A program made the translations under genes and the position numbers. Below are positions 30,475 to 46,213 of a stretch of 64,000 bases of DNA, piece after piece (position 1 is the stretch's first letter; each line of letters begins with the position of its first letter). The DNA comes from Methylotenera sp. Lineage in GTDB: Bacteria; Pseudomonadota; Gammaproteobacteria; Burkholderiales; Methylophilaceae. Below the pieces are notes generated by a model. It searched no databases. It was not told the origin of the DNA and saw nothing but the letters and a program-made list of their open reading frames with translations. The DNA lies in assembly GCA_046594885.1 (NCBI GenBank), contig JBKJRD010000014.1:9901-73900 (forward strand), given 5' to 3'.

Positions 30475-30517
30475 TGTGCGATGACGTACAGAAAATGCAT
30501 CGCGTTTGCAATAGTGT
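30475..30517 (+). promoter_or_regulatory. Candidate Crp/Fnr-family site A plus -10 element, upstream of asmA
   Basis: TGTGCG-ATGA-CGTACA (30475-30490), 21 nt, TAGTGT (30512-30517). Confidence 0.7.
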
Positions 30518-30583
30518 TCAGTTTGTAAGCGGATACCACTTTATAAGCTTATGCCCACCAATATGACGCTTAGTCACTTGCTT

Positions 30584-30611
30584 TAGTCTGTTGCCCTAGT
30601 CTGTTGCCCTA
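30584..30611 (+). repeat. 13-bp tandem duplication (TAGTCTGTTGCCC x2) in the asmA leader
   Basis: Units at 30584-30596 and 30597-30609, then TA. Confidence 0.85.
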
Positions 30612-30694
30612 ATTTGATGCGCTAGTCTCATGCATTAGCTAGGGTCAAGCACCCAGTACAATTACTAAATAGTGCAATTACCAAATAAGGCAAT

Positions 30695-32752
30695 ATGAAT
30701 AATCGCACAAAATTATGGAATATGCTGGCTGTTTTAATTGCCGCTTTAATCATTGCAATTGCGCTGTGCGAGCGCGCTGGCTGGCCTTTTTTAGCCGCGC
30801 CACTTGAAAAACAACTTTCTAGTTTGCTTAAACGCGATATCAGTTTTGACAGTAAAAATAGTGTTAACTCAGTTGAAAAAACGGCTATTAAAAACGGCAG
30901 CGTTACACATTCCCCGCCTGAACCGCAAGCATTTCAAATCAGATTCTTGGGTGGATTAAGATTAAATACGGCAAATCTGCTTATTGCCAAGCCCACTTGG
31001 AGTACAAAGCCTTATTTTCTACAAGTGGAAAACCTTGCGCTTAAACTGCGCTACATCGATGTATGGCGCGCGTATTATGGGCAACCTATTCACATCAAAA
31101 GCTTACAGGCACAAAAACTAGAAGGCTATATCGAGCGCTTAGCTGATGGCCGTGCCTCATGGCAATTTAAAGATAAGCCAGATGACCCAGATAAGCCAAT
31201 TAAATTGCCGTCTTTTGATGAGTTGACTTTAATCAACGGCTTGCTGCACGTGAATGACGCGCCACTCAAAGCCAAAATCGAAGCCAAGTTGTCACTTGAA
31301 AATCGCACGCTTGAAAATGGCCATATAGATAATCAAACGGTTAAGCAAAAAAAATACGCAAAACTAGACACTAGATTGACAGCAACGGCAAATGGTCGTT
31401 ATCAAGACTTACCGTTGAAAATTGATCTGGTTAGTATTGGTGCGCTATCTGGGGCTGATACTTCAGCAGAGCTGCCTGTGGCGCTAAAGCTTAATGCAAG
31501 CATTGGCCGCGCGCATTTACGCTTTAAAGGTAAAACCAAAGACATTATGCAACTGGATTATTTTGTCGGTAGTTATACGCTAAAAGGCACATCGTTAGCT
31601 GCGGTTGGTGATTTATTTGGGGTAACGCTGCCGACAACGGCAGCATTTAATACCAATGGCAATATTGAAAAGCAAGACTTGCTGTGGCGCGTCAAGGTTA
31701 ATCATTTATTGATTGGCGATAGTGATTTAAATGGGCAATTCACCTATGATCGATCGCCTAAAACGCCATCGCTAAAAGGCAAGCTAGGTGGTAAAAAGTT
31801 AGTTATTACCGATTTAGGCCCAGCGTTTGGTGCAACGGCAAAGGCTAAAAATACAGGGAAAGTATTGCCAACACGTCCGTTTGATTTGGCTTCACTGCGT
31901 CGCATGAATGCTGACCTGCTGATTGATATTCAATACCTAGATTTAAAAACGCGCATATTACAACCGTTAAAGCCGCTGCAAGGCCATTTAAAATTAAACA
32001 ATGCGGTATTAACACTCAACAATATTTACGCGTCTACTGCCGATGGTTTGCTAAAAGGCGATATGCGCTTAGATGGGCGGGGTAATCAAGCATTGTGGGA
32101 TGCGGATTTACGCTGGAGTGGGGTGCGATTAGAGCGCTGGATTAAGCAGTCGCGCGAAAAAGGTTCTCCACCTTACATTGCCGGAAAACTGCATGGCAGC
32201 GCAAAATTAAAAGGCCAGGGTAAATCGACAGCAGCCATATTGGCTAGTTTAAGTGGCGATGTGCGTAGCGAATTGCAAGATGGTGCAGTTTCACATTTGG
32301 CGATAGAAGTGGCTGGTTTAGATTTAGCGCAATCTGTTGGCGTAATATTTAAAGGCGACGATGCGTTGCCCGTGCAATGTGCAATAGCCGATTTACATGC
32401 CCAAAAAGGCACGTTTACGCCAAAGGTATTGGTGGTGGACACAGAAGATACGACGCTGTGGGTAACTGGCTCTTTGTCTTTAGCAACAGAAACACTTAAT
32501 TTGCGTGCTGTGGCGCTACCCAAAGATTTTAGCCCATTAACGGTGCGCGTACCTGTCAATGTGACGGGGCCTTTTGCGCATCCACAGGTGTCGCTAGAGA
32601 AAAAACCAGTGGGTTTAAAATTGGCCGCTTCAGCTTTGTTGGCGCTGGTGAATCCGCTGGCCGCGGTGATCCCACTATTAGATAATGGCGATACTAAACT
32701 TGCCAAACAGCGCGCAAGCCGATGCGCGAGTTTGATGAAAAAGCCCACTTAA
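30695..32752 (+). CDS. AsmA family protein (YhjG-like)
   Basis: N-terminal TM anchor and long beta-rich body; C-terminal DFSPLTVRVPVNVTGPF and LVNPLAAVIPL. Confidence 0.85.
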   Translation: MNNRTKLWNMLAVLIAALIIAIALCERAGWPFLAAPLEKQLSSLLKRDISFDSKNSVNSVEKTAIKNGSVTHSPPEPQAFQIRFLGGLRLNTANLLIAKPTWSTKPYFLQVENLALKLRYIDVWRAYYGQPIHIKSLQAQKLEGYIERLADGRASWQFKDKPDDPDKPIKLPSFDELTLINGLLHVNDAPLKAKIEAKLSLENRTLENGHIDNQTVKQKKYAKLDTRLTATANGRYQDLPLKIDLVSIGALSGADTSAELPVALKLNASIGRAHLRFKGKTKDIMQLDYFVGSYTLKGTSLAAVGDLFGVTLPTTAAFNTNGNIEKQDLLWRVKVNHLLIGDSDLNGQFTYDRSPKTPSLKGKLGGKKLVITDLGPAFGATAKAKNTGKVLPTRPFDLASLRRMNADLLIDIQYLDLKTRILQPLKPLQGHLKLNNAVLTLNNIYASTADGLLKGDMRLDGRGNQALWDADLRWSGVRLERWIKQSREKGSPPYIAGKLHGSAKLKGQGKSTAAILASLSGDVRSELQDGAVSHLAIEVAGLDLAQSVGVIFKGDDALPVQCAIADLHAQKGTFTPKVLVVDTEDTTLWVTGSLSLATETLNLRAVALPKDFSPLTVRVPVNVTGPFAHPQVSLEKKPVGLKLAASALLALVNPLAAVIPLLDNGDTKLAKQRASRCASLMKKPT

Positions 32753-32857
32753 AACATATGGGCATCAAACTTAACCCTTAAATTCGCTTAAAAATCGCGC
32801 GCTAAACGCGCATATTAAACTAACTTAACCCTATTTTTTCCTCAAAAAAATAGCGGG

Positions 32858-33511
32858 TTATTTCACTACTAATCTTGCTTTCGCTGCGCTTTCAGCAGCA
32901 AAAATACTCAATTTTTTCAGTACATTATCCACTGCCAAATTCGCTGCATTGACGCCGCCAATCGGGTTGTCGCTGGCGGCCATTACTTTTTCGTCGAATT
33001 CTTGTGAATCGATTATTTTGCCTGTAGCACTATCAATCACAACCACACGTAACGTAAAGCGCACAACGCTGGGCTGTTGTTCAAACAGTTGCACCAAACG
33101 AATCACTTCTGCTTCTAATCTTAAATCGGTTTTAACGGCGCCTAATTTTGGAATCACAGCGCTAAATTGCCCTGAATTTTTAATTGCCGAAATCATCAGC
33201 GGTTGCAACATGTTCGCTGGCGTATCCACCCATTCATTGCGCGCAAAGTATTCTAGCTGATGCGGTGAACGCGTATACATCATGCGGCGCGTGTCATATC
33301 CAGCAGCAGCTGTGGGCGTGTTAACAATCAACGTAGGCAAGGTTTTATCAGTGGTTAAAAGTTTATTTTGTTGCGTGTTCGTTGACAATTCACTCAATGA
33401 GAAATAAGTGGTTTGCACCGATTGCTTCTTAAGTAAGCCCGAGCAAGCGGATATTGACGACAAAGCCAACAGCAAAAACAAAGTTAACCATTTATTTGAC
33501 ATCATATTCAT
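32858..33511 (-). CDS. ABC-type transport auxiliary lipoprotein (PqiC-like)
   Basis: Lipobox ISAC; motifs YDTRRMMY and EYFARNEWVDTP; last gene of the MCE operon. Confidence 0.85.
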   Translation of the reverse strand: MNMMSNKWLTLFLLLALSSISACSGLLKKQSVQTTYFSLSELSTNTQQNKLLTTDKTLPTLIVNTPTAAAGYDTRRMMYTRSPHQLEYFARNEWVDTPANMLQPLMISAIKNSGQFSAVIPKLGAVKTDLRLEAEVIRLVQLFEQQPSVVRFTLRVVVIDSATGKIIDSQEFDEKVMAASDNPIGGVNAANLAVDNVLKKLSIFAAESAAKARLVVK

Positions 33512-34503
33512 CGCGATGGGCTTTCAGAAGATTCACCAGGACCGTCAGGCACGGGCGTTTTGCCGCGTAACAAGCTGGCTGGATCGCGTTCGGTTTGTTC
33601 ACTTAAGCGTTTTAGCGAAGCGGATAGCGCGTTTAATTCACTTAATAAGCGTTGCACTTCTGGCAAGGTTTCTTGCGTATAGCGCTCTATATTTGCGCCA
33701 ACCGATTCTACGGTTTTGCCCGCACTGGTGCTGGCTGTTGCTGCCGCACTGCCAGCTTTTTCAATAGCAATTGCACTGCGGTTAATCTGCTCAATGGTCA
33801 CACTAAGTTGATCCATGACCGGCGCGATTTTATTCAGCAGCGGGTTCAATTTTTCACTCGCGCGTGCGGTGTTATCGGCGGTGCGGGCTACATTCACAAT
33901 GCTGGCATCAATCAACATTTTGCGTTCAGCAATGGTTTTTGAAATGATAGCGATATCGGCCAATGTGCTTTTAAATGCCTGCTTATTTTCTGCACTTAAT
34001 AAAGAATCAATGGTGCTAGAAGTATTATCCAATTTAGCCAATACGGTGGTGAGCACATTTTCTAGGCGTGTACTAAGCGATGGTTTAGTTTGAATCACTG
34101 GATATTTTTCATCACCAGTAGCAAGCAAGGGCGGCGCTGTGCTTGCGCCACCATCTAATTCTACATAAGCAATGCCAGTTAAACCTTGTGTTTTTAACAC
34201 GGCAAAAGTATCCACTTTAATGGGCGTGCCTGTTTCTATCGCCAACATAATTCTGACAATCTCGGGGTTACTAGTATCGAGTTGAATATCTTTGACTTTA
34301 CCCACATCCACACCGTGATATTTGACAGGCGCGTTTAGGTTAAGTCCCGCAACAGATTCTTCTACAATAGCTAAATACAAATCGTATTGTTTTTGTAGCG
34401 CGCCGCCAGATGCCAACCATAAAATGGTCGCAATCAGTATCGCGCCTAATAACAGTACAAAAGCACCAACAACTGCATAATTTACCTTGGTTTCGATGAT
34501 CAA
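33508..34503 (-). CDS. MCE/MlaD family protein with a long helical tail
   Basis: N-terminal TM; motifs VAGLNLNAPVKYHGVDVGKV and QGLTGIAYVEL. Confidence 0.9.
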   Translation of the reverse strand: MIIETKVNYAVVGAFVLLLGAILIATILWLASGGALQKQYDLYLAIVEESVAGLNLNAPVKYHGVDVGKVKDIQLDTSNPEIVRIMLAIETGTPIKVDTFAVLKTQGLTGIAYVELDGGASTAPPLLATGDEKYPVIQTKPSLSTRLENVLTTVLAKLDNTSSTIDSLLSAENKQAFKSTLADIAIISKTIAERKMLIDASIVNVARTADNTARASEKLNPLLNKIAPVMDQLSVTIEQINRSAIAIEKAGSAAATASTSAGKTVESVGANIERYTQETLPEVQRLLSELNALSASLKRLSEQTERDPASLLRGKTPVPDGPGESSESPSR

Positions 34504-34546
34504 TCCTTAATCAGTTAACAATAAATAAAAGTGAATTTTAGCCTAA

Positions 34547-35362
34547 TTACGCCGTTTTTTTACTGGTGCCTTGAGCGTGGGCTAATCGACTGCGCGGCCC
34601 ATCAAAAAAAGCTTTAACCATCGGATTATCGCTTTTAGATAGTGCGAGCATCGAATCCACCGCTTGCACTTTGCCATCGCCCAATACTGCCACGCGGTCG
34701 GTCACTTGCCACAACAAATCCAAATCATGCGTAATAATCACAATGGTTAAGCCAAACTGGTCGCGCAATTGTAAAACCAATTCATCTACGCCTGCCGCGC
34801 TCACTGGGTCTAAGCCAGCAGTCGGTTCGTCTAAAAATAATAATTCTGGCTCAAGCGCCATCGCACGTGCCAGCGATGCGCGTTTAATCATGCCGCCACT
34901 GAGTTCTGATGGATATTGCTGGCTGGCTTCTATTTTTAAACCTGTCATGGCTAATTTAATTGCAGCAATTTCATCAATTAAGTTTTCCGATAAATCGGTA
35001 TGTTCGCGCAAAGGCAAGCCCACGTTCTCTTTCACTGTAAGCGAACCGAATAAACCACCATGTTGAAACATGACACCCCAGCGTTTACGCAAACTTAACG
35101 CCTGTTTTTCGTTAATATCTTTTAGCTCAGTGCCCAGCATGCGAATCGAGCCACTGTTGGGTTGATGCAGCAAAATCATCTCGCGTAATAAGGTTGATTT
35201 ACCAGAGCCACTGCCACCAATAATGGCAAAAATTTCCGCTCGGCGCACTTCCAAGTTAATATCGCTATGCACAATTTTTTCGCCAAAACGAGTAGAAACG
35301 TTGCATAGTTCAATGACAATTTCATCAGAATCTGGTGCAGTATTTTTAACTGTTGTTTGCAT
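34547..35362 (-). CDS. MlaF/Ttg2A-like ABC ATP-binding protein
   Basis: Motifs GGSGSGKST, ELSGGMIKRASLARA and LDEPTAGLDP. Confidence 0.92.
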   Translation of the reverse strand: MQTTVKNTAPDSDEIVIELCNVSTRFGEKIVHSDINLEVRRAEIFAIIGGSGSGKSTLLREMILLHQPNSGSIRMLGTELKDINEKQALSLRKRWGVMFQHGGLFGSLTVKENVGLPLREHTDLSENLIDEIAAIKLAMTGLKIEASQQYPSELSGGMIKRASLARAMALEPELLFLDEPTAGLDPVSAAGVDELVLQLRDQFGLTIVIITHDLDLLWQVTDRVAVLGDGKVQAVDSMLALSKSDNPMVKAFFDGPRSRLAHAQGTSKKTA

Positions 35363-35371
35363 GTTAAGTCG

Positions 35372-36535
35372 TTACAGATTGAGTAAGCTAAATGCCACCG
35401 AAAATATCGCATCGGCCACAATAACTAAAAAAATGGATTGCACTACACTGCGCGTAGTTTGGCGGCCAACACTATCTGCGCCGCCTTTAGTGCGAAAACC
35501 TTGATAGCAACCCACCATGGCGATAATGACGGCGAAAATGGGTGCTTTGCCCACGCCAACCATAAACGCGGTTGGGCTAACGGCTTTGACGAAACGGTCT
35601 AAAAACTCTACAAAGCCCACATCTAACTGTTGATAAGCCATTAACATACCACCAAAAACGCCGAGTATATCGGCAAATACGGTTAACAAAGGCAGCGCGA
35701 TAAAGAGCGCGATGACTTTTGGAATCACCAGTAATTCTTGCGGATTGATGCCCAGCGTTTGCATGGCGTCAATTTCTTCTGTGACCGCCATGGTGCCAAT
35801 TTGGGCGGCATAAGCAGAGCCTGAACGCCCGGCAATAATAATCGCGGTGATGAGCGGGGCGAATTCGCGCAACATCGACAAACCAACTAAATCGGCCACA
35901 AAAATATTGGCGCCATATTGTTTTAATTGGCCTGCGCCCTGGTAAGCCACAACCACGCCCAATAAAAATGCCAATAGTCCGACGATGGGTATTGCATCAA
36001 AACCTGCGCTGCGGATATTAAACAAAATGGGTCGCCAGCGAATGCGTTGTGGATCTGCAATACTTTTGGCTAATGCAATTGCGGTTTCGCCCACAAAACT
36101 CAGCGCACCCATTAATTGCTGCGCAAATTGCACGGTATTTTTGCCGATACGCTCAACAAAGTTTGGTTGCGGATTTAATGCAGATTTGAGGCTATTTTGC
36201 GGGTTAAGTATTGAATTATTTGCAGGCGCATCTGCTAATTGCATGCGGATAATATCTAACCTTTTTTGAAAAACTGGGGTAAGCTGATGCAGCGCTATTA
36301 CGCTATTTTGTTGCGCACAATCTTGTAATAATTTTTGCAAACACCAAGCGCCTACACTATCTAAACTTTCAATTTTGGCACAATTTGCAATGATATCAGC
36401 GTTGGCTGGTAGCGCAATCAACGCCAGTTGCTGCTCAGTTGCCGTTAAATATTGCGCATCCCAGCGGCCAGATAGCTGCAGCTCTGTAGGGCTAAGCTGC
36501 GTAATCGTTGCTGTTTGCTGAGGTTGATGCGACAT
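35372..36535 (-). CDS. MlaE family permease with an N-terminal STAS-like domain
   Basis: Motifs REFAPLITAIIIAGRSGSAYAAQIGTM and EEIDAM; N-terminal LDSVGAW. Confidence 0.92.
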   Translation of the reverse strand: MSHQPQQTATITQLSPTELQLSGRWDAQYLTATEQQLALIALPANADIIANCAKIESLDSVGAWCLQKLLQDCAQQNSVIALHQLTPVFQKRLDIIRMQLADAPANNSILNPQNSLKSALNPQPNFVERIGKNTVQFAQQLMGALSFVGETAIALAKSIADPQRIRWRPILFNIRSAGFDAIPIVGLLAFLLGVVVAYQGAGQLKQYGANIFVADLVGLSMLREFAPLITAIIIAGRSGSAYAAQIGTMAVTEEIDAMQTLGINPQELLVIPKVIALFIALPLLTVFADILGVFGGMLMAYQQLDVGFVEFLDRFVKAVSPTAFMVGVGKAPIFAVIIAMVGCYQGFRTKGGADSVGRQTTRSVVQSIFLVIVADAIFSVAFSLLNL

Positions 36536-36553
36536 ATTTGTGCTACTGGATAA

Positions 36554-37501
36554 TTACTTAACCATATTTTGTCGTTGATATTCTTTTCGTTTAATCTGCA
36601 TATAATCATCGCGTTCCAATTCATGCAATTGCAGCGCGTATTCTTCTGTGCTATCAAACCAGCCTTGCAGTCTTTTTTCGAGCTGTTTATCAGCAGGTTG
36701 ATTAAGCGATGCTAGATAAGCGTCGATGGTTAAATAGTAACGCATGGTATTGCGCTCAACTACGCCGCGCACGCCTTGAATATAGTCTGGTTGCGCGTTG
36801 CTAGCTGCGTTGACCCGCGTAAATCCGACTTTGTCTTTGCCAATTGTAGCCAAATAACCTTTCATGGCAATGCGTCCTGCTAAACCAAAAGAATACGCGT
36901 AGGTAAAGTGTAAAAAAGTCTGGTTTTTATTGAGCGGCGTGGCTTCTACCACGATGCGATAATCACTGGTACCCAACGGGCCTTCATTGGCCTTCAGTTG
37001 CACCGAAAAATAGTCAGCCGCAGAGGCTATTTGCTGATAATTAAAGGTAGCTTTATAAGTGTCTGCCAATTCTTGATCGTCTTTTTTACCTAAATTTAAA
37101 TGTAGTAAACTGTTATTTTGGCTATTTTCCGCACCACAGTATTTAACATTTAAATGCAAAATCAGCGCATCACACCAATGCGCAGGATTATTTAGCGCAA
37201 CATTCACCATTGAAAATGGATGATCAAGCACTGCGTATATTTCGCCTTTTAACTGCGCTGGCGATTCGGTCGATTGCAGTACAATTGGACGCTTAAACGG
37301 GTTATCCGATAAGGCTTGTGCTAACGATTGATGCTGATTGAGTAATGTGCTTGCCTGAAGATTAGTTTTTGATTGCGCATTATCCGCCGCTACAGCATTG
37401 GCATCAATTAACAATAAAGCCAACAAAATGGCGCATATATTGTGCAGGTAGCGATTGAATGTTGGCTGTTTAAGTATAGTTAACCCGTTAAAAATCGTCA
37501 T
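36554..37501 (-). CDS. Hypothetical exported protein inside the cls-MCE operon
   Basis: ATG at 37501 preceded by AGGAG; signal-like hydrophobic segment; the track start at 37621 overlaps cls and is unlikely. Confidence 0.7.
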   Translation of the reverse strand: MTIFNGLTILKQPTFNRYLHNICAILLALLLIDANAVAADNAQSKTNLQASTLLNQHQSLAQALSDNPFKRPIVLQSTESPAQLKGEIYAVLDHPFSMVNVALNNPAHWCDALILHLNVKYCGAENSQNNSLLHLNLGKKDDQELADTYKATFNYQQIASAADYFSVQLKANEGPLGTSDYRIVVEATPLNKNQTFLHFTYAYSFGLAGRIAMKGYLATIGKDKVGFTRVNAASNAQPDYIQGVRGVVERNTMRYYLTIDAYLASLNQPADKQLEKRLQGWFDSTEEYALQLHELERDDYMQIKRKEYQRQNMVK

Positions 37502-37571
37502 TTTACTCCTATAAAAAAAGCATTTAAAAATGTCATTTATTGCTATAAAAACGCAATGATTGCACTCAATA

Positions 37572-39008
37572 TTACAAAAGACGCGCCCATAAACGTGCCG
37601 CCTTTTCTTTAATGCGCGCACTAATTGGCCGTCTGCGCCAATTATTTAGCGTCATTTGGTGCGATACTTGTAAATCCTCATAAAACATACGTTGCATTTG
37701 ATCGCCGAAATCTTGCCCTAATATCACTGCGTTGATTTCTTGGTTATTCACAAAGCTGCGCCAATCCAAATTCGTGGAGCCAATAGTTGACCAAACACCA
37801 TCGATTAACGCTGTTTTGGCATGCAAAATGCCCACTTTATGTTCGTAAATCTGCACACCAGCGCTCAATAGCTCATCGTAATAAGAGCGTGATGCGTAGA
37901 AAACCAAATCCGAATCGGTCTTTTCTGGCAGCAATAATTTAACCGCCACGCCGCGCGCAACGGCGTCTTTTAAAGTAGTCAATAATTGCGGATCAGGCAC
38001 AAAGTAAGCATTGGTTAAATAAACCTGGGTCTCTGCACTATTAATGGCTGAAATTAAAGTCGCATAAATCTGGCTATAGGGCTCATTGGGCGAGCTGCCA
38101 ATAGCACTAACTACCTCTTTGCCTTGGCTGGTTAAAGTTGGAAAATATTGTTTAGGTGCTAAAGCGTCGCCTTTTTGCAATGCCCAAGTCGCCATATACA
38201 TTTTTTGAAACTCAGCGACCACGGGGCCAGTCATTTTTAAATGTGTATCACGCCAAGGCAAGCCTTCGATTTCTGATTTAGCTGCATTTACTTTAGGCGC
38301 CTTCTTTTTAGGGCTGCTTCTTGAGCCGCCAAATGAGCCGCTAGAGCTAGAATATACGCTACTAATGTTAATGCCGCCCACAAACGCAATATTGCCATCT
38401 ATCACCAATAGCTTACGATGGTCGCGCTCATTTAAGTTCCAGCCTTTTCGTAGATTGGCAGGGTTAATCGGGTTAAATTCCAACACATTGATGCCGGTTG
38501 CTCTTAAGGAATCAAAAAATTCTTTTGGCGTGTTGATAGAGCCTACGCTATCGTAAATTAAATTAACTTGTACGCCGCTACTTTGTTTTTGCATCAAGCG
38601 CACAGCGAACTCATGACCTACTTCGTCATCCTCAAAAATAAAAGTTTCCATATTAATATGGTCTTTTGCGTTATCAATCGCGCTTAACATCGCAGCATAA
38701 GTCGCAGGCCCATCGATTAATAAATCCACTTTATTGCCAACAATCAGTGGGCTACCCGCCACTTCGCTAATTAATGCCAAATGCCTGTCAAAAATACTGG
38801 TTTCAACACCATCTTTTTGAATGCGGGCAAGAATTTTTTTGCTTTGCTGTGCGCTCATTGGGCCGCGTGCATTTTCTAATACTGGCGGCTTCGATGATTG
38901 CATCGCCATGTCAGGCACCATAATGGGTATAGAGGTGCAAGCAAACAGTGTTGTAGCGCTTAATACACAAGCCCACCTAAAAAAACGGGCGATATTTGTT
39001 TTTATCAT
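37572..39008 (-). CDS. Cardiolipin synthase / phospholipase D family protein with a lipoprotein-type signal
   Basis: Two HKD motifs (DHRKLLVIDG, LHAKTALIDG), GSTNLDWRS, and an N-terminal TLFAC lipobox-like sequence. Confidence 0.9.
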   Translation of the reverse strand: MIKTNIARFFRWACVLSATTLFACTSIPIMVPDMAMQSSKPPVLENARGPMSAQQSKKILARIQKDGVETSIFDRHLALISEVAGSPLIVGNKVDLLIDGPATYAAMLSAIDNAKDHINMETFIFEDDEVGHEFAVRLMQKQSSGVQVNLIYDSVGSINTPKEFFDSLRATGINVLEFNPINPANLRKGWNLNERDHRKLLVIDGNIAFVGGINISSVYSSSSGSFGGSRSSPKKKAPKVNAAKSEIEGLPWRDTHLKMTGPVVAEFQKMYMATWALQKGDALAPKQYFPTLTSQGKEVVSAIGSSPNEPYSQIYATLISAINSAETQVYLTNAYFVPDPQLLTTLKDAVARGVAVKLLLPEKTDSDLVFYASRSYYDELLSAGVQIYEHKVGILHAKTALIDGVWSTIGSTNLDWRSFVNNQEINAVILGQDFGDQMQRMFYEDLQVSHQMTLNNWRRRPISARIKEKAARLWARLL

Positions 39009-39075
39009 GGTGCCTAGTATATGAATATCGCGCATTTATGTAACCCAAATAAGCTCAATATAAGCTTTTGGCAAA

Positions 39076-39118
39076 ATATTAGCTATAAAGAAATAATAAT
39101 TTAGTACGGAAACGCACA
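39076..39118 (-). promoter_or_regulatory. Candidate Crp/Fnr-family site E plus -10 element, upstream of the cls-MCE operon
   Basis: On the minus strand TGTGCG-TTTC-CGTACT (39118-39103), 21 nt, TAATAT (39081-39076). Confidence 0.7.
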
Positions 39119-39228: not shown

Positions 39229-39271
39229 TGTGCGCTAGCGAACCGATAGCCAGTTTAACTTTCGGTAATGT
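39229..39271 (+). promoter_or_regulatory. Candidate Crp/Fnr-family site B plus -10 element, upstream of csbD
   Basis: TGTGCG-CTAG-CGAACC (39229-39244), 21 nt, TAATGT (39266-39271). Confidence 0.65.
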
Positions 39272-39317: not shown

Positions 39318-39518
39318 ATGGAATGGAACCAAGTGCGCGAAAATTGGCCGCAATTTCAATATGCTGTTCAGCATGAATGGAGCAGATTGTTAGATTTTCA
39401 ATTAGAAGTAATCGCAGGTGATCGCAATCAACTCATTGCAAAAGTGCAGTTGATGTATCAAATCTCTTTAACTGAAGCGCAGGCGCAGGTTGCAAATTGG
39501 CAGAATTGCAAAACTTAA
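39318..39518 (+). CDS. CsbD/YjbJ family stress protein
   Basis: Pattern W-N-x-x-x-x-N-W-x-Q-F...W...L...IAGDRNQLI-x-K-x-Q-x-x-Y; GGGG ribosome-binding site. Confidence 0.8.
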   Translation: MEWNQVRENWPQFQYAVQHEWSRLLDFQLEVIAGDRNQLIAKVQLMYQISLTEAQAQVANWQNCKT

Positions 39519-39602
39519 AGTCTGATGCGCATTTTTATGCGTTTATTTTGTGTTTTTTAGGCATATTTACATTTAAAAAACAATTCATGTTTTGTTGAGA
39601 TA

Positions 39603-39857: not shown

Positions 39858-39938
39858 GCCTGAATAATATAAAGTGATATACTCATTTCACTGTTGCATT
39901 ACTTTATGCGACACAAAACCAGAAAAGGGTGCATCATC

Positions 39939-40436: not shown

Positions 40437-40788
40437 TGTTTATTAAGCCTAATTGCTGGTTGCAAATTCTTCATAGCTAACAATTGTTTTGCAGATCAAC
40501 AATTAATCTGCAAATTTTCAAGCGCTTAGTGGATGGCAAAAAAGTATTATTAGGCTTCTTCACAATCTTTTTTTTAAGAGTTCTAGTTGTGTTTGATTTG
40601 GACACCATCATCAATCACCTTTAACTTAAGGCTATTGCCCATATTAATTAAAATCATGATTTTTGCTGATAATGTACGTTAAAACTAGGTAACAATTTAT
40701 TTAATTTGTTAATCACAACATTCGTTTTAATGACAACTTTTTGCTTAGATATGAGTGTTAAGAGTCTAAATTTTAACAAGCCATCTTT

Positions 40789-40832
40789 AGTGCGATAACG
40801 TACAGAGTTAATCAGCCTGTAGAGCGTAAAGT
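40789..40832 (+). promoter_or_regulatory. Candidate Crp/Fnr-family site C plus -10 element, upstream of the small lipoprotein / DUF3309 / dehydrogenase genes
   Basis: AGTGCG-ATAA-CGTACA (40789-40804), 22 nt, TAAAGT (40827-40832). Confidence 0.7.
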
Positions 40833-40862
40833 TGGGTTCCTACTAATCTAAAGAGATATACC

Positions 40863-41090
40863 ATGAATAAATTAATGTTAAGTGCTACCGTAATTGCATT
40901 ATTAACCCTGAGCGCTTGCGACAAGCCAACAGTGGTTAACGTGCCAGCTGAAACTGTTGTAGTGCCAGTTCCAGGACCAGCAGGCCCTGCAGGCGCAGAC
41001 GGCGAAGCTGGCCAATCTGGCGCAAAAGGTGAAACAGGTGGTGATACAACCATCATTGTTGCACCAGAAGAAACACCAACAACACCATAA
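40863..41090 (+). CDS. Small lipoprotein with a short collagen-like Gly-X-Y run
   Basis: Lipobox LSAC; GPAGPAGADGEAGQSGAKGETGG. Confidence 0.8.
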   Translation: MNKLMLSATVIALLTLSACDKPTVVNVPAETVVVPVPGPAGPAGADGEAGQSGAKGETGGDTTIIVAPEETPTTP

Positions 41091-41153
41091 TAATGGCAGC
41101 CTAATTCAGTCATATTTTTATCGTCAATTTTAATTCTGTTCAAGGGGAACATC

Positions 41154-41312
41154 ATGGGTTTAAGTACAATCGTTATAATTGTGTTGGTTTTAATATTAAT
41201 AGGTGCATTACCAAGCTGGGGCCACAGTAAAAACTGGGGTTACGGGCCAAGTGGTGGCATCGGTTTAGTATTGGTAATATTGATCGTTTTATTATTAATG
41301 GGTCGCATATGA
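41154..41312 (+). CDS. DUF3309 family small membrane protein (52 aa), not in the ORF track
   Basis: Translated by hand: [52 protein letters not shown]; GGGGA ribosome-binding site; stop overlaps the next ATG. Confidence 0.9.
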
Positions 41313-42673
41313 TAGAAAAAACAAACACCGCGTTAGATAATCGTCTGTCTGAATTTAACGCGCTGTGTTTGACAGTATTATTGTTTGGGGCATTGTTTTT
41401 TCTAGCTGCTTGTGGCGAAGTGGCTAGATTGCCTGCTTCTGCAGGTGTTGGTACAAACCCTGTTTTACCAGCACCTAACAAAGCACTTATTCCCACAGTC
41501 AATATTGCGCCAGCAAAGGGTTGGCCAGAAAAAACGCTGCCAACTGCTGTTACTGGCACGCGCGTAGCGGCTTTTGCAAAAGATTTAGACCATCCGCGCT
41601 GGATCACCGTATTGCCCAATGGAGATGTGCTAGTTGCGGAAACTAACGCGCCACCAAAACCTGAGGGTGCCAGTGGAGGAATAAGAGGCTGGGTAATGGG
41701 TTTGGTGATGAAGCGTGCTGGTGCTGGCGTGCCAAGTGCAAACCGCATTACCCTGTTACGTGATGCAGATGGCGATGGCGTGGCAGATGTACGGCTAGCG
41801 TTTTTAGAGGGCTTATCTTCACCTTTTGGTATGTCATTGATTGGTAACCACTTTTATGTAGCCAATGCCGATGCGATTGTGCGATTTAATTATGCAGAAG
41901 GCGCTAAGCAAATAGATCAACCAGGTGAAAAAATGATTGATTTGCCTAGCGGCATTAATCATCATTGGACTAAAAACATGATTGCAAATGCCGATGGAAG
42001 CAAGCTGTATGTTACTGTGGGTTCAAATAGTAATGTTGCAGAAAATGGCATGGACATTGAGTTTGAACGTGCTGCAATTTGGGAAGTAGATGTAAAAACG
42101 GGACAGCATCGTATTTTTGCTTCGGGTTTGCGTAACCCAAACGGTTTAGCTTGGGAAAATAAATCCAAAACTTTATTTACAGTGGTGAATGAGCGCGATG
42201 AAATTGGTAGCGATTTGGTGCCCGATTATTTAACTTCGGTTAAAGAGGGTGCGTTTTATGGCTGGCCTTACAGCTATTATGGCCAAAATGTAGATGCGCG
42301 TGTGCAACCACAACAGCCAGATTTGGTGGCAAGTGCAGTGGTGCCTGATTATGCTTTGGGCGCACACACCGCATCATTAGGCCTTGCTGCATCTACTGGC
42401 AATACCTTGCCAGAACAATTTGCCAATGGCATGTTTGTAGGCCAACACGGTTCATGGAATCGTAAACCGCTGAGTGGCTATAAAGTGATTTTTGTTCCGT
42501 TTACAAATGGCAAGCCTACAGGTGCGCCAATTGACGTGTTAACAGGCTTTGTGAGTAAAGAAGGCAATGCTTATGGCAGGCCAGTGGGTGTTGCGCTAGA
42601 TAAAAGTGGCGCTTTGTTGGTAGCCGATGATGTGGGCAATACGATTTGGCGCGTCACGGCGAGTACGCCCTAG
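41309..42673 (+). CDS. Sorbosone dehydrogenase family (PQQ-type sugar dehydrogenase-like beta-propeller) lipoprotein
   Basis: Lipobox LAAC; motifs [27 protein letters not shown] and GRPVGV. Confidence 0.88.
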
Positions 42674-42739
42674 ATTACTTTTTTTGCTATAAAATACAGT
42701 TAGGTTGCGTGAATATCGATTAATCTTAACGGAAAAATA

Positions 42740-43156
42740 ATGCCCATTTTATTCAAGTTTTTACCCGCGTATCTCGTTATTATGCTGGTTATGTTCGTGT
42801 TGGATATTGTGTGGTTGGGTACGATTGCGCGGCCAATGTATCAGCAAGGCATTGGCCATTTAATGGCACAACAGCCTAATTTATTTTTTGCTGCGCTGTT
42901 TTATTTGGTTTATGCACTGGGTTTAATGTGGTTTGCGCTTTTGCCAAACCGTCATCATAGAGGGCTTAAAAGTACATTCGCCGCAGCAGCTAGTTTTGGA
43001 TTTTTTGTGTATGCCAGTTACGATTTAACCAATTTAGCCATGCTAAAAGATTGGCCGTTAAAATTAGCTTTGATCGATATCACCTGGGGAACATGGTTAA
43101 GCGGCGTCAGTGCGACATTGGGGAAATGGGTGTTTAATCGCGTCAACCGCATTTAG
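42740..43156 (+). CDS. DUF2177 family membrane protein
   Basis: Motifs LDIVWLG, YASYDLTNLAMLKDW and DITWGT. Confidence 0.85.
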   Translation: MPILFKFLPAYLVIMLVMFVLDIVWLGTIARPMYQQGIGHLMAQQPNLFFAALFYLVYALGLMWFALLPNRHHRGLKSTFAAAASFGFFVYASYDLTNLAMLKDWPLKLALIDITWGTWLSGVSATLGKWVFNRVNRI

Positions 43157-43176
43157 CAGAAACAAATTGCCTTAGC

Positions 43177-44337
43177 TTAGCGCTCGTTAGAATAGCCAAT
43201 CAGCCCTAAAAAACCGCGTACCAAAGCATATACAAACCATGAAATACAGCGTTTTGTTAAGCTGCTTTTGGTCCACTCATCTGCCGATACCTGATACGCA
43301 TTGTTGCGGATAGATGCAATTATTTCTGTGCGCAATTCACTCGCAAACGCGCTATCTTGGACCACAATATTGGCTTCACGCGCCAACATCATACTAAACG
43401 GATCAATGTTAGATGAACCGACAGTTGCCCAGTAACTGTCAATGACCGCTACTTTGCAATGCATAAAACTTTGACGATACTCGAATATTTCAATATTATT
43501 TTTAAGAAAAACACTGTAAAAAGCATGCGTCGCAAACATTAAAAAATATTCCATGCGGCCTTGTAACAGTAACTCAATTTTAACGCCACGTTTGGCGGCT
43601 TTAATGAGCGCTTGTCTAAAACGTCTGCCTGGAATAAAGTAGGCGTTAGCGATTATAATTTCAAACTTTGCCGCATGAATCGCAGTGAGATAAGCTTTCT
43701 CTATATCCCGTCTATGCAGCAGATTATCGCGTAATACAAAAGCCGCTTTAACGCCTTTTTTGATGCTTTTTTGGGTGTTAAGTAGGCTTTTGCTTTTCCC
43801 AACATTTGGGCTTTTTAAATGCGTAATCGCTATTCTGCGCCATAATTTTTGCGCACTTTCTGTCATGCTGGGCACTAAAGCGCCTTCAACTTTCACCGCG
43901 TAATCAAGCCTTGGCGGCATATTGTTCGGAACATTATTGTCATCAATAATATTAATGCCGCCCACAAAGCCGATTTGATTATCAATCACCGCAATTTTAC
44001 GATGCAAACGGCGTAAGCGATTTTTTTTGAGTGTCCAAGGCGAAACCTTAGGCCGATAAAACATGATTTGCACGCCTGCTTGTTTAAGCGCTTTTACAAA
44101 ATCTCTGGGCATATTTTTACAGCCAAAACCATCTAGCAATACGCGCACAATAACGCCACGTTGCGCCGCGGCTTTTAACGCATCGGCAATTTGAATACCG
44201 GCCGCATCTGACTCAAATATATAACTTTGTAAATAAACGCTTTGCTTGGCCTGTGTTATGGCTTTAGCCAGCGCAGGAAAAAACGCTGTGCCATTGCGCA
44301 GGAGCTCAATATGGTTGCCAGCAACAAAGTTAATCAT
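43177..44337 (-). CDS. clsB: Cardiolipin synthase B
   Basis: Motifs LHRKIAVIDNQIGFVGGINI and MHCKVAVID, GSSNIDPFS; downstream of a ybhP-like gene as in E. coli. Confidence 0.9.
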   Translation of the reverse strand: MINFVAGNHIELLRNGTAFFPALAKAITQAKQSVYLQSYIFESDAAGIQIADALKAAAQRGVIVRVLLDGFGCKNMPRDFVKALKQAGVQIMFYRPKVSPWTLKKNRLRRLHRKIAVIDNQIGFVGGINIIDDNNVPNNMPPRLDYAVKVEGALVPSMTESAQKLWRRIAITHLKSPNVGKSKSLLNTQKSIKKGVKAAFVLRDNLLHRRDIEKAYLTAIHAAKFEIIIANAYFIPGRRFRQALIKAAKRGVKIELLLQGRMEYFLMFATHAFYSVFLKNNIEIFEYRQSFMHCKVAVIDSYWATVGSSNIDPFSMMLAREANIVVQDSAFASELRTEIIASIRNNAYQVSADEWTKSSLTKRCISWFVYALVRGFLGLIGYSNER

Positions 44338-44346
44338 AAAAGAGTG

Positions 44347-45099
44347 TTAAGTTTTGAGTAACGAAGTGGTTAATATGGCATGATCAGACACTTTTACAAA
44401 GCGTGAGCCAGCATGTACTTGTACGTGCTTAATCTGAAAGCCGCGCACGTAGATGCGATCTAAGCGTAACATAGGCAACCACGAAGGAAATGAGCGTGCC
44501 GATTTGCCAGCATGTTGCTCGAACACTTCTTTAAGATGTAAGCGCGCTGCAAAAATGCGGCCTGCACGTGAGCTCCAATCATTAAAATCGCCAGCGATAA
44601 TCAAAGGCGCATCTGCTGCAATATGCTGTTCAATATAATCTGCCACGGCATTGAGCTGTTGTTGCCGCCACTGTGCAAATAAACCTAAATGGATGCAAAC
44701 AGCGTGTAAAGGCACATCCCAATCGGGTATTTGGATTTCGCAATGCAACATGCCGCGCTTTTCTGATTTGTGCGCAGAGATATCCAAATTGGTGGTCTTG
44801 ATTATCGGAAACTTTGACAGTAAAGCGTTACCATGATGGCCATCAGGATAGGCTGAGTTTTTGCCGTAAGCAAACTCTGACCAAATACTATCTGCTAAAA
44901 ACTCCACCTGGCCCGAAACAGGCCATGCGGAAAAACGCTTGCTATGCAATAAATGCTCATCTTGTACTTCTTGTAGAAAAATCACGTCGGCATGTAAATG
45001 CCGTAATAAATCGCGTTGCTTATGCAGTGAAAAATGGGCGTTAAAGTGACTAAAACCTTTGTGTATGTTGAAGGTGGCAATGCGTAGGGTGTTTGACAA
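44347..45099 (-). CDS. Endonuclease/exonuclease/phosphatase family protein, YbhP-like
   Basis: Motifs TFNIHKG, FLQEVQ, HHGNALLS, AGDFNDW, LDRIY and SDHA. Confidence 0.9.
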   Translation of the reverse strand: MSNTLRIATFNIHKGFSHFNAHFSLHKQRDLLRHLHADVIFLQEVQDEHLLHSKRFSAWPVSGQVEFLADSIWSEFAYGKNSAYPDGHHGNALLSKFPIIKTTNLDISAHKSEKRGMLHCEIQIPDWDVPLHAVCIHLGLFAQWRQQQLNAVADYIEQHIAADAPLIIAGDFNDWSSRAGRIFAARLHLKEVFEQHAGKSARSFPSWLPMLRLDRIYVRGFQIKHVQVHAGSRFVKVSDHAILTTSLLKT

Positions 45100-45191
45100 A
45101 TTGAGCTCATTTATTTAGATAGTTTAAATCGCTTGTTTCTAGGATGCTAACTATATGATAGCAATAATGCGGCAAACAATTATAGGCATTA

Positions 45192-45261
45192 ATTGTATGA
45201 TTTTAAGGGTTAAGTCTGTGTACGATAGCGCACAGCGCACAACGGATTATAAAGCTAAAGT
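45192..45261. promoter_or_regulatory. Candidate bidirectional Crp/Fnr-family site D between ybhP-clsB and the regulator gene
   Basis: TGTACG-ATAG-CGCACA (45219-45234). TAAAGT lies 21 nt downstream on + (45256-45261) and TACAAT 21 nt downstream on - (45197-45192). Confidence 0.75.
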
Positions 45262-45385
45262 GTGTCAACTGATGTTAATCCATTTTACAGACGTAGGACA
45301 ATGATGACATCACAATCCGCTAGTTCCTGATAAAAAATCACGACCTCAAAACGCATCATGGAATCCTCAAGAAAAGGGGAATGAT

Positions 45386-46213
45386 ATGGGCATCGTAGCG
45401 CAACAATTCAAACACAAAGCGGCTTCACCTCAGTACAACCAATTAACGGCAAATATGCACGAATATTTGCCGCATTTCAATCACCCTATGATTGAAATGC
45501 CGAATTCTTTACGTCATCAAAATCATTTATTAGCAGCCATGTCAGAACAAGAATGGCAGCAATTGCAACCTGATTTAGAAGCAGTAGATCTGAAGCTCAA
45601 TCAGGTGCTGTATGAATCAGGCAAAGCACCAACTTATATGTACTTTCCTACTACGGCCATGGTTTCATTATTGTATGTGACCCAAAGTGGCGCTTCGTCT
45701 GAAGTGGCGGTGGTGGGTAACGATGGTGTTGTGGGCGTTTCATTATTGCTAACTGGCAGCCAAACACCCAACCAAGCTTTGGTGCAAAGTGCTGGCAAAG
45801 GCTACAGAATACGTGCCCAAGCTGCAAGAAATGCACTTAATCGCGGTGGTGCAATGCTCAATATTTTATTGCATTCATCGCAAGCGATGATCACGCAAAT
45901 GACACAAAATGCGGTTTGCAATCGCCACCATTCTATTGATCAACAATTAAGTCGTCGCTTATTGCTGAGTTTGGATCGCTTGCCTTCTAACCAAATCGCC
46001 ATGACGCATGAAATGCTGTCTTTTATGTTGGGTGTCAGGCGCGAAAGCATTACAGATTCTGCCCTCAAACTGCAAGAGGCGGGCATCATCAGTTACAAAC
46101 GTGGCCAAATTACCGTGCTTAATCGTGAAGGTTTAGAGGCGCGCAGCTGTGAGTGTTACGCAATTGTGAAAAATGAACAGCAACGTTTACAAAAAATGTT
46201 ATTTAATGCTTGA
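45386..46213 (+). CDS. Crp/Fnr family transcriptional regulator
   Basis: cNMP-like beta-barrel (YFPTTAMVSLL, EVAVVGNDG); HTH MTHEMLSFMLGVRRESIT; C-terminal CECY. Confidence 0.93.
   Translation: MGIVAQQFKHKAASPQYNQLTANMHEYLPHFNHPMIEMPNSLRHQNHLLAAMSEQEWQQLQPDLEAVDLKLNQVLYESGKAPTYMYFPTTAMVSLLYVTQSGASSEVAVVGNDGVVGVSLLLTGSQTPNQALVQSAGKGYRIRAQAARNALNRGGAMLNILLHSSQAMITQMTQNAVCNRHHSIDQQLSRRLLLSLDRLPSNQIAMTHEMLSFMLGVRRESITDSALKLQEAGIISYKRGQITVLNREGLEARSCECYAIVKNEQQRLQKMLFNA

Follow-up and report, generated by a model that had tools for sequence, protein, structure and literature searches.

A 64,000-nt stretch of Methylotenera sp. DNA (the window) carries a regulator gene of the Crp/Fnr family and five palindromes in front of genes for envelope-lipid and stress proteins, raising the question of whether regulator and palindromes belong together and, if so, how the one would act through the other. 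The organism of the window was found only in soil DNA metagenomes. An initial annotation had described the palindromes as intergenic sites with a common 16-bp core, and all five are present at the following positions, where the bit scores come from a weight matrix trained on other genomes only:

45386-46213, plus strand: Crp/Fnr-family regulator gene, 275 aa (Pfam PF00027 and PF13545)
30475-30490, plus strand: site A, TGTGCGATGACGTACA, facing asmA; exact match, 24.6 bits, the top matrix score in the window
39103-39118, minus strand: site E, TGTGCGTTTCCGTACT (minus-strand reading), facing cls; one mismatch, weak at 12.6 bits
39229-39244, plus strand: site B, TGTGCGCTAGCGAACC, facing csbD; two mismatches to the 16-mer, 21.4 bits with the 20-bp matrix
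40789-40804, plus strand: site C, AGTGCGATAACGTACA, facing lipoprotein-DUF3309-dehydrogenase; one mismatch, 18.4 bits
45219-45234, no strand assigned: site D, TGTACGATAGCGCACA; exact match, 23.3 bits; predicted operator common to the divergent ybhP-clsB and regulator promoters

The five-site observation is confirmed and lies far beyond chance. The window is 88% coding and none of the sites lies within a coding region. With at most one mismatch to the 16-mer the window holds five matches against 0.69 expected, a number reached in 0 of 100 shuffles; exact matches number two against 0.03 expected. When two mismatches are allowed the enrichment is gone (six matches, 8.1 expected), so that the case for site B is made by the extended motif and by conservation rather than by the 16-mer alone, its score of 21.4 bits being due to T at position -1, TA at the centre and A at +18. 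An additional match, absent from the initial annotation, occurs ahead of leuA at 17160-17175 (19.9 bits), inside a Leu-rich leader ORF and hairpin; it has no TAnnnT at 21 nt and is most plausibly a look-alike by chance, forming part of the leuA leader hairpin. This look-alike lends something to the reading that the matches at large, whether palindromes by chance, repeat elements or RNA hairpins, lack a regulatory role. That reading is nevertheless barely credible in view of the shuffles, the intergenic positions, the conserved flanking and central bases, the fixed spacing to -10 hexamers and the placement kept in relatives; moreover, the region matches no Rfam family.

The genes that the sites face, whose identities had been given correctly as judged by Pfam and NCBIfam, are these:

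30695-32752, plus strand: AsmA-family gene, 685 aa (Pfam PF05170)
32858-39035, minus strand: cls run, a probable operon, its extent judged from overlaps and short gaps
37572-39035, minus strand: cardiolipin synthase, cls (Pfam/NCBIfam)
36554-37621, minus strand: hypothetical gene of the cls run, 355 aa
35372-36535, minus strand: MlaE-like permease with STAS (Pfam/NCBIfam)
34547-35362, minus strand: ABC ATPase, MlaF (Pfam/NCBIfam)
33508-34503, minus strand: MlaD/MCE (Pfam/NCBIfam)
32858-33511, minus strand: ABC auxiliary lipoprotein (Pfam/NCBIfam)
39318-39518, plus strand: csbD-like gene, 66 aa (NCBIfam PRK10428), with a terminator-like hairpin 3' of it at 39527-39542 in a terminator scan
40863-43156, plus strand: lipoprotein-DUF3309-dehydrogenase-DUF2177, a probable operon, its extent judged from spacing only
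40863-41090, plus strand: small lipoprotein-like ORF, first in this probable operon
41154-41312, plus strand: DUF3309 (Pfam)
41309-42673, plus strand: glucose/sorbosone-dehydrogenase-like protein (Pfam)
42740-43156, plus strand: DUF2177 (Pfam)
44347-45099, minus strand: ybhP-like endonuclease/exonuclease/phosphatase (EEP) gene (Pfam/NCBIfam)
43177-44337, minus strand: clsB (Pfam/NCBIfam)

The proposal of a lipid-remodelling and general-stress regulon is supported, as PLD/cardiolipin synthase, CsbD, BON and fatty-acid desaturase or hydroxylase families recur with sites elsewhere; it is to be widened by signalling proteins (PAS hybrid histidine kinases, REC proteins and GGDEF/EAL proteins), which are recurrent targets as well. 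The site is carried by the EEP family in 6 of 8 loci and by the CsbD family in 6 of 8, target-family counts that are approximate owing to crude gene calls in high-GC loci.

Each site had also been described as followed, 21-22 nt away, by a TAnnnT hexamer pointing at a gene, and all of these predicted -10 hexamers are in place:

30512-30517, plus strand: TAGTGT (asmA), 21 nt from the site A core
39081-39076, minus strand: TAATAT (cls), 21 nt from site E; TAAAAT in L001 and TATTAT in L005, at 21 nt
39266-39271, plus strand: TAATGT (csbD), 21 nt from site B; TAAAAT in L001 and TAATCT in L005, at 21 nt
40827-40832, plus strand: TAAAGT (lipoprotein-DUF3309-dehydrogenase), 22 nt from site C
45197-45192, minus strand: TACAAT (ybhP-clsB), 21 nt from site D
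45256-45261, plus strand: TAAAGT (regulator gene), 21 nt from site D; TATAGT in L001, at the same offset

Here L001, L005 and similar handles denote individual loci from other genomes; on the ybhP side, TACAAT or TAAAAT lies at 21-22 nt from the site in L001, L003, L004 and L005. None of the six predicted hexamers forms part of a full -35/-10 consensus promoter detected in a promoter scan. Class II activation by CRP, FNR and NtcA is characterised by a fixed distance of 21 nt to the -10 element and by the lack of a -35 consensus. Across the loci, 57 of 187 flanks have TAnnnT at exactly 21 nt from the core, where the background is about 3, in agreement with the class II spacing proposed earlier, and in an independent set of perfect sites it falls at 21 nt 29 times and at 22 nt 14 times, against about 4. 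By these counts the 21-nt spacing has class II geometry, which puts the centre of the site at a predicted -41.5, and it is conserved across phyla. With a TAnnnT -10 hexamer 21 nt downstream of the site, the regulator would act as a class II activator. It is unlikely that the regulator, bound at the sites, chiefly represses by promoter occlusion or has a dual role: the site does overlap the -35 region, a position equally suited to a repressor, many perfect sites have no TAnnnT at 21 nt, and a complete rival sigma70-like promoter (TTAAAA-16-TATAAT, 45206-45179) overlaps the ybhP side of site D, yet repressor sites have no need of such exact phasing, and the fixed distance without a -35 consensus is kept across phyla. 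Genome-wide, TAnnnT at exactly 21 nt accompanies only about a quarter of the perfect sites, so that some sites may nonetheless repress or act at other distances.

The variant site first proposed, TGTRC-N6-GYACA, was right in that the palindrome tracks the regulator, but is better written as the 20-bp palindrome TnTGTGCGnTAnCGCACAnA, that is, T-n-TGTGCG-nTAn-CGCACA-n-A, in which positions outside the search pattern are conserved as well (T at -1 in 104 of 140, TA at the centre in 93 of 140, and A at +18). Scans of the kind suggested by the initial annotation bear out this association: the window-derived 16-mer has 65 matches in 47 loci with relatives of the regulator (at least about 40% identity) as opposed to 2 in 33 alphaproteobacterial loci, and with the matrix 110 matches versus 1 reach 15 bits or more, counts that are partly circular in the regulator loci, which formed the training set, whereas the seed-pattern counts are not. 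By these numbers the motif accompanies the regulator subfamily and not its alphaproteobacterial sister clade. In the reverse direction, 35 of 120 8-kb loci picked solely by a perfect 20-mer encode a homologue of the regulator, with GVRREG[VI]T in almost every case, and the regulator is the commonest gene adjoining perfect sites (14 of 89 ORFs). The pair recurs in beta- and gammaproteobacteria and in Acidobacteria, and the regulator family extends beyond the betaproteobacteria named in the initial annotation. A literature search found no published description of the motif-regulator pair.

The predicted autoregulation, which had been proposed from site D, is the most conserved feature, as a site lies at most 400 nt upstream of the regulator gene in 22 of 52 cases with a VRRE helix versus 0 of 28 with an ANRK helix. 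The GVRRE recognition helix pairs with TGTGCG-N4-CGCACA and the GANRK helix of the sister clade with TGAGCA-N4-TGCTCA, for which the reciprocal comparison gives 31 matches in the ANRK clade versus 2, so that helix and palindrome change together between sister clades. It is very unlikely that the palindromes are operators of another transcription factor encoded elsewhere, with the Crp/Fnr gene merely one target. Co-occurrence alone cannot prove the identity of the binder, and the regulator lies within 8 kb in only 35 of the 120 perfect-site loci; however, this 29% far exceeds the fraction of a percent expected for a gene assumed to have one or a few copies in each genome, the site bears a Crp-family signature (TGTG-N8-CACA, 16-bp core, class II spacing), and helix and palindrome covary in two sister clades, each clade having a palindrome of its own before its own gene.

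Among Methylotenera relatives, where the comparison covers sites B to E, the sites before cls, csbD, the lipoprotein-DUF3309-dehydrogenase cluster and ybhP/regulator are conserved. L001, L003, L004, L005 and L006 each have a counterpart of site D in the ybhP-regulator intergenic region, and L001, L005 and L024 one of site C before their orthologue of the lipoprotein/DUF3309/dehydrogenase cluster; in L013 and L021 the site lies in the corresponding intergenic region with the 21-nt TAnnnT on the opposite side. Site B has counterparts in L001 and L005; a cls-proximal site corresponding to E, with csbD on the other side, is found in L001, L005 and L021, the last showing only this site in its cls/csbD region, and L005 and L021 also share the synteny of cls with the 355-aa gene.

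Taken as a whole, the best explanation, which we regard as probable, is a regulator of this subfamily that recognizes the 20-bp site and controls an envelope-lipid and stress regulon by class II activation; the analysis supports the initial interpretation, every testable part of which held in silico. A regulator dimer would presumably bind the 20-bp palindrome directly, its centre near -41.5 standing in for a -35 element, and would probably activate rather than repress. The five sites would drive six promoters, tentatively that of asmA and further those of cls-hyp-mlaE-mlaF-mlaD-lipoprotein, csbD, lipoprotein-DUF3309-dehydrogenase(-DUF2177), ybhP-clsB and the regulator gene, site D giving positive autoregulation. 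The likely output is envelope-lipid remodelling, through two cardiolipin synthases, an Mla/MCE-type lipid transporter and AsmA, together with what may be a general-stress response through small proteins.

The regulator combines a cNMP-binding-like domain with HTH_Crp_2 (Pfam) and, by its translation, has the recognition helix GVRRESIT (R218 R219 E220), a hinge C178-N-R-H181-H182 that is conserved among homologues, and a C-terminal extension with C255-E-C257-Y. By these sequence features it is a member of an uncharacterised Crp/Fnr subfamily with helix G-V-R-R-E-[GS]-[VI]-T, hinge C-N-R-H-H and C-terminal C-E-C-Y. As a working guess, the conserved residues C178, H181 and H182 of the hinge and C255 and C257 of the tail could form a putative redox or metal sensor that would set the position of the DNA-binding domain; the structure model has low confidence (pLDDT 59.9). 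The FNR-type N-terminal Cys cluster was rightly said to be missing from the regulator sequence. In a provisional alignment with CRP, the R180-E181 pair is retained, R185 is not, and the cAMP-pocket residues E72, R82 and S83 have no equivalents, in line with what had been claimed of the pair and of the pocket signature; cAMP is an unlikely signal. That the protein is the cAMP-CRP of its lineage, exerting ordinary catabolite control through a drifted site, is highly improbable: domain architecture, R-E pair and site geometry are CRP-like, but the cAMP-contacting residues are lacking, the genes targeted concern envelope lipids, stress and signalling rather than catabolism, and the CECY extension is extra to CRP. 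In a PDB search the nearest solved structure is NtcA, at E = 1e-4 only, which places the regulator nearer to NtcA than to CRP and close to neither, and its 20-bp motif shares the TGTG-N8-CACA geometry of the CRP site but has CG in place of A/T at half-site positions 5-6.

The five 16-bp palindromes of the form TGTRCG-N4-CGYACA that were reported in the initial annotation are all found in the window (G+C 42%), and on the side of each that faces a gene start lies a TAnnnT hexamer, at a distance of 21 nt or, for site C, 22 nt. The genes around them had also been identified correctly, and the features are as follows.

Candidate operators and neighboring genes (window positions)
30475-30490 (+), site A
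30695-32752, AsmA
39035 down to 32858 (-), cardiolipin synthase, 355-aa hypothetical protein, MlaE-STAS, ABC ATPase, MlaD/MCE and auxiliary lipoprotein
39103-39118 (-), site E
39229-39244 (+), site B
39318-39518, CsbD-like protein
40789-40804 (+), site C
40863-43156, small lipoprotein-like ORF, DUF3309, glucose/sorbosone-dehydrogenase-like protein and DUF2177
45099 down to 43177, ybhP-like EEP and ClsB
45219-45234 (both ways), site D
45386-46213 (+), Crp/Fnr regulator (275 aa)

With up to one mismatch, TGTRCG-N4-CGYACA is matched five times compared with 0.69 expected, a count that none of 100 shuffles reaches, and exact matches number 2 compared with 0.03 expected. The matches are all intergenic although 88% of the window is coding, and no Rfam family was found over the sites. 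The five-site observation itself is confirmed. When two mismatches are allowed in the 16-mer, the enrichment is gone, hence site B needs support from elsewhere; it is rescued by carrying all the extra features of the longer, 20-bp operator described below. On a matrix of that operator trained without the window, the sites score 24.6 (A), 23.3 (D), 21.4 (B), 18.4 (C) and 12.6 bits (E). LexA, Fur and NrdR-type boxes as well as REP-like repeats were dropped as candidates, as their spacing and sequence do not fit the sites.

A sixth match (17160-17175, 19.9 bits) was rejected as an operator, since it is one hairpin arm in the Leu-rich leader preceding leuA and a TAnnnT hexamer at the 21-nt distance is missing. 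The match falls within a 40-aa leader ORF (17057-17179, MLNSFTFQITPFHAGLLLSLVLLRSTFALRSASLLRGSAH*), and the leader (17057-17330), which is directly upstream of leuA (17329-18882), is strongly structured (z = -4.75). This leader looks like a leucine attenuator, and a search of Rfam gave no match to it.

The motif is also present in relatives, where its full extent can be seen. Among 80 loci encoding relatives of the regulator, which were scanned with the window-derived 16-mer pattern, 65 matches occur in the 47 loci with a regulator at least ~40% identical, namely those from beta- and gammaproteobacteria, Acidobacteria and one cyanobacterium, and 2 occur in the 33 alphaproteobacterial loci, which have similar G+C and regulators of 34-39% identity. 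In the aligned matches, positions left unconstrained by the pattern are conserved as well, with T two bases ahead of the core in 104/140, a central TA in 93/140 and a conserved A two bases past the core. CG occupies half-site positions 5-6 in 125-138 of the 140 symmetrised half-sites, and position 4 is preferentially G (98/140) or else A (29/140). Since conservation extends to positions that the search did not constrain, the operator is best described as a 20-bp palindrome, T-n-TGTGCG-nTAn-CGCACA-n-A; the 16-bp motif first proposed is real and recurs in relatives, but it was drawn too short.

In the Methylotenera relatives, gene order is kept, the proteins are 60-90% identical and sites are located in the same intergenic regions. 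Between cls and csbD, two loci (L001, a Methylotenera MAG, and L005) have the arrangement of the window, with E facing cls and B facing csbD, and in L021 the cls-proximal site is present alone; this conservation supports the weak site E. One or more sites precede the lipoprotein/DUF3309/dehydrogenase genes in L001, L005 and L024, and L013 (Methylotenera versatilis 7) and L021 carry a site in this intergenic region with the 21-nt hexamer facing the opposite way. Site D, between the divergent ybhP and regulator genes, has counterparts in L001, L003, L004, L005 and L006. For AsmA, a search of genome and metagenome collections found a single relative (47% identity) in a high-GC Burkholderiaceae MAG, where the nearest site is ~950 nt upstream of asmA, apparently before another gene. 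The asmA leader of the window (30569-30694) contains tandem repeats, namely ~3.5 copies of a 13-bp unit, TAGTCTGTTGCCC, at 30584-30628 and ~2 copies of a 16-bp unit at 30655-30694. Directly after the regulator gene, where the window has a galE-like epimerase, three Methylotenera MAGs encode a giant ORF of ~2,800-2,900 aa (L002:3317-11716, L004:9607-18054 and L006:3744-12554), each with a 22-25-bit site ahead of it.

The proposed class II spacing is borne out across these loci, as, of 187 flanks of sites scoring at least 18 bits, 57 have a TAnnnT beginning precisely 21 nt from the core, compared with ~3 at other offsets. In the perfect-site set, the matches listed contribute 29 hexamers at 21 nt and a further 14 at 22 nt, compared with a background of ~4. 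A core-to-hexamer distance of 21 nt places the center of the site at about -41.5, and a site at this position followed by a -10 hexamer is the class II activator architecture of CRP, FNR and NtcA. Crp/Fnr proteins bind palindromes of about 16-22 bp as dimers, and at the promoters they activate the site is centered near -41.5 or -61.5. The spacing supports a model in which the regulator would act at class II promoters in the manner of NtcA or CRP. In a promoter scan, none of the six predicted -10 hexamers was contained in a full -35/-10 consensus promoter. Site D has hexamers 21 nt away on both sides (TACAAT and TAAAGT), and its counterpart in L001 is two-sided as well (TACAAT and TATAGT), with a hexamer on the ybhP side in L003-L005. 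Also on the ybhP side of D, a sigma70-like near-consensus promoter, TTAAAA-16-TATAAT (45179-45206, -), follows 13 nt downstream of the -10 hexamer predicted for activator-dependent transcription, and ybhP-clsB may be transcribed from a basal promoter as well as from an activated one. Repression or other modes of action at some sites are possible: this sigma70-like promoter is a rival to the activated one, and the exact 21-nt spacing is found in only about one quarter of the perfect sites elsewhere (among the matches listed). Activation is nevertheless the mode to which the peak at 21 nt points. The window sequence was matched in soil DNA metagenomes only; this, with the close similarity of its regulator to one from a Methylotenera MAG, assigns the window to a betaproteobacterium of the Methylophilaceae. 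In metatranscriptomes M. versatilis 7 is represented only by long assembled contigs of flat depth, in which 5' ends are not resolved.

The palindrome is probably bound by the Crp/Fnr protein encoded next to it, for which there are four arguments. Site D is located upstream of the regulator gene, 151 nt from its ATG, and a site of at least 15 bits within 400 nt upstream is found for 22 of 52 regulators with the VRRE recognition helix, in line with the earlier proposal that the regulator's own gene is preceded by a site; among 28 regulators with the ANRK helix of an alphaproteobacterial sister clade, the number is 0. A scan of all GTDB species genomes for the perfect 20-mer gave at least 120 loci, from which 8-kb stretches were taken, and those among the matches listed are nearly all from Betaproteobacteria, Gammaproteobacteria and Acidobacteria. 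A homologue of the regulator is present in 35 of the 120 listed 8-kb loci, its helix being nearly always GVRREG[VI]T, and the gene most commonly adjoining the perfect sites encodes a Crp/Fnr protein (14 of 89 flanking ORFs among the matches listed). The geometry of the palindrome, TGTG-N8-CACA, is of the Crp-family type.

The sister clade resembles the window clade in its CNxxH hinge, its CECY tail and a palindrome of 6-N4-6 form ahead of its own gene, but this palindrome reads TGAGCA-N4-TGCTCA and its loci lack the TGTGCG motif. This palindrome lies ~100-160 nt upstream of the regulator gene (L048-L080; gene at ~10001), and with up to one mismatch it has 31 matches in the 33 alphaproteobacterial loci compared with 2 in the 47 beta/gamma loci. 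The recognition helix reads G-V-R-R-E-[GS]-V-T in the motif-associated proteins and G-A-N-R-K-S-V-T in the sister clade, so that helix and operator change together between the two clades, which is the fourth argument for the adjacent protein as the binder. In six loci (L009, L010, L011, L015, L036 and L020), two or three paralogous regulators are encoded in tandem, with helices VRRE, VRRE and VRRV, and TGTGCG-type sites precede several of them, which suggests a regulatory cascade or heterodimers. A few perfect sites come from unexpected phyla, namely a Treponemataceae MAG (L147), in which a 53%-identical GVRREGVT regulator adjoins the site, and Clostridia MAGs (L107, L130, L146); these could reflect horizontal transfer or binning error.

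The window regulator, which is 75% identical to that of L001, consists of an N-terminal cNMP-binding-like beta-barrel domain (PF00027, E = 5e-8, residues 69-152) and a C-terminal Crp-type helix-turn-helix (PF13545, E = 1.4e-11, residues 191-252). The hallmarks of the proposed subfamily, G-V-R-R-E-[GS]-[VI]-T, C-N-R-H-H and C-E-C-Y, are all present as GVRRESIT, C178-N-R-H-H182 and C255-E-C257-Y. What had been said of its binding residues stands: in a pairwise alignment with the CRP sequence, the R-E pair of CRP is kept and the cAMP-pocket residues are absent, the positions of E72, R82 and S83 being V/S, P/T and N, and the position of R185 is D in the window regulator and E or A in relatives. 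The FNR-type N-terminal Cys cluster is likewise absent, as the first 177 residues contain no Cys. Two sets of residues are conserved in both clades: a Cys that ends the long central helix, with N-R-H-H after it (C178, H181, H182), and C-E-C-Y (C255, C257), with which an extra C-terminal helix begins. An AlphaFold2 model built from 30 close homologues is poor (pLDDT 59.9); at this low confidence its secondary structure follows the Crp pattern, with two further helices at the C terminus, and the top matches in a fold search with it are all generic Crp/Fnr proteins. Our working guess is that the hinge could serve as a redox or metal sensor.

The wider regulon was approached by clustering the ORFs of 168 loci and counting the family members with an upstream site, operons allowed for. 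As the genes were called with a crude, GC3-filtered ORF caller, the counts are approximate.

Recurrent target families (members with a site upstream/members; approximate counts)
Regulator, 47/96
PAS hybrid histidine kinase, 8/11
PLD/cardiolipin synthase, 9/13
CsbD, 6/8
BON-domain protein, 6/7
ybhP-like EEP, 6/8
274-aa REC protein, 6/7
Small Gly-rich protein, 5/6

Further recurrent targets are a fatty-acid desaturase or hydroxylase, GGDEF/EAL proteins and an AI-2E transporter, and the predicted theme of the regulon is envelope lipids, small stress proteins and signaling. Perfect sites were also seen before genes for a type III polyketide synthase (L091:6042-7136), a fatty-acid hydroxylase (L128:2734-3366), hemB (ALAD; L119:2641-3708) and a COX1/FixS-type oxidase subunit (L089:1480-3096), a hint that the content of the regulon differs widely from lineage to lineage and may extend to respiration.

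Several independent comparative tests agree in supporting the interpretation put forward in the initial annotation. The Crp/Fnr proteins are among the best-understood bacterial transcription factors, yet to our knowledge neither site nor regulon nor signal has been described for most of their subfamilies. Judged by sequence comparison, the GVRRE/CECY proteins would constitute a new specificity subfamily within this very well-known family rather than a new kind of system. From sequence alone, the subfamily gains a precise operator of 20 bp, a promoter architecture, a helix that determines specificity and a core regulon, and the sister clade illustrates how helix and operator co-vary. Its hosts include methylotrophs, nitrifiers (Nitrosomonas, Nitrotoga), iron oxidisers (Gallionellaceae), Polaromonas/Rhodoferax, Paraburkholderia, Halomonas, methanotrophs and Acidobacteria. 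Since the regulon joins lipid genes (two cardiolipin synthases, an Mla/MCE lipid transporter and AsmA) to CsbD- and BON-type stress proteins, it offers a handle on envelope remodeling under stress in environmentally important bacteria, in which the subfamily is broadly distributed, and should interest those who specialize in bacterial gene regulation and envelope stress. Regulons in thousands of genomes and MAGs can now be annotated with the matrix, and the conserved Cys/His set provides a concrete hypothesis for the signal.

A bolder reading, to which we give roughly one chance in four's worth of credence and which we thus regard as rather unlikely, is that the GVRRE/CECY proteins are master activators of an unrecognised stress or dormancy program across phyla (Betaproteobacteria, many Gammaproteobacteria and Acidobacteria), comprising envelope-lipid remodeling, CsbD and BON proteins, and PAS kinases with c-di-GMP enzymes. 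They would sense through the Cys/His cluster of hinge (C178, H181, H182) and tail (C255, C257) and not through a nucleotide pocket, and the sister clade with TGAGCA-N4-TGCTCA would combine the same sensor with a different operator. If true, this would be a new sensing mode for the Crp/Fnr family.

In the open full-text literature, no description of TGTGCG-N4-CGCACA, the sister motif or the regulon was found. The publication on Bcam1349, a c-di-GMP-binding Crp/Fnr protein of Burkholderia cenocepacia, does not define its operator.

Among the well-characterized members of the superfamily, FNR/FixK/Dnr proteins share with the subfamily frequent autoregulation and common tandem paralogues. In FNR, a [4Fe-4S] cluster is held by an N-terminal Cys cluster and a central Cys, whereas the conserved Cys of the window regulator are C178, C255 and C257; its helix is VRRESIT with no E--SR, and the motif is TGTGCG-N4-CGCACA, not TTGAT-N4-ATCAA. 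Hence, by its sequence the regulator is not an FNR. With E. coli CRP/CAP (orthologues Vfr, GlxR and Clp) it has in common the two-domain architecture, equivalents of R180-E181, an operator of the type TGTG-N8-CACA with central TA, and class II spacing. Unlike CRP, it is without the cAMP-pocket residues and has Asp, Glu or Ala at the equivalent of R185, half-site positions 5-6 are CG and not the A-T/N of TGTGA-N6-TCACA, and the regulon is not catabolic; the missing pocket and R185 equivalent together with the different half-site argue that the regulator is not a CRP.

Of the solved structures, NtcA, the cyanobacterial global nitrogen regulator, comes nearest by sequence (E = 1e-4), with no close relation, and its identity in the fold search, 22-24%, exceeds that of the other matches. 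Promoters activated by NtcA are of class II, with TGTA-N8-TACA centered at -41.5 and a TAN3T -10 box, an architecture that the window sites resemble, and the R = A variants TGTACG-N4-CGTACA contain GTA-N8-TAC. Only these position-4 A variants fit the NtcA site (29/140 symmetrised half-sites, with G in 98/140), the preferred half-site being TGTGCG with strongly conserved CG at positions 5-6. The recognition helix aligns as RRE[GS][VI]T compared with RVTVTR in NtcA, the subfamily is found in proteobacteria and Acidobacteria, its regulon has to do with envelope and stress rather than nitrogen, and there is a C-terminal CECY extension. As helix, hosts and regulon differ, the regulator is probably not an NtcA. 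The closest functional analogy is SdrP of Thermus thermophilus, a cAMP-independent stationary-phase/stress activator of the Crp family that acts at class II promoters. SdrP has no CECY tail and no specific sequence relationship to the regulator, and its site, TTGTG-N9-CNC, differs; the Thermus CRP-family structure TTHB099 (3b02), which we take to be SdrP, is a generic fold match only. By analogy, the physiological role of the GVRRE/CECY regulators may resemble that of stress activators such as Thermus SdrP.
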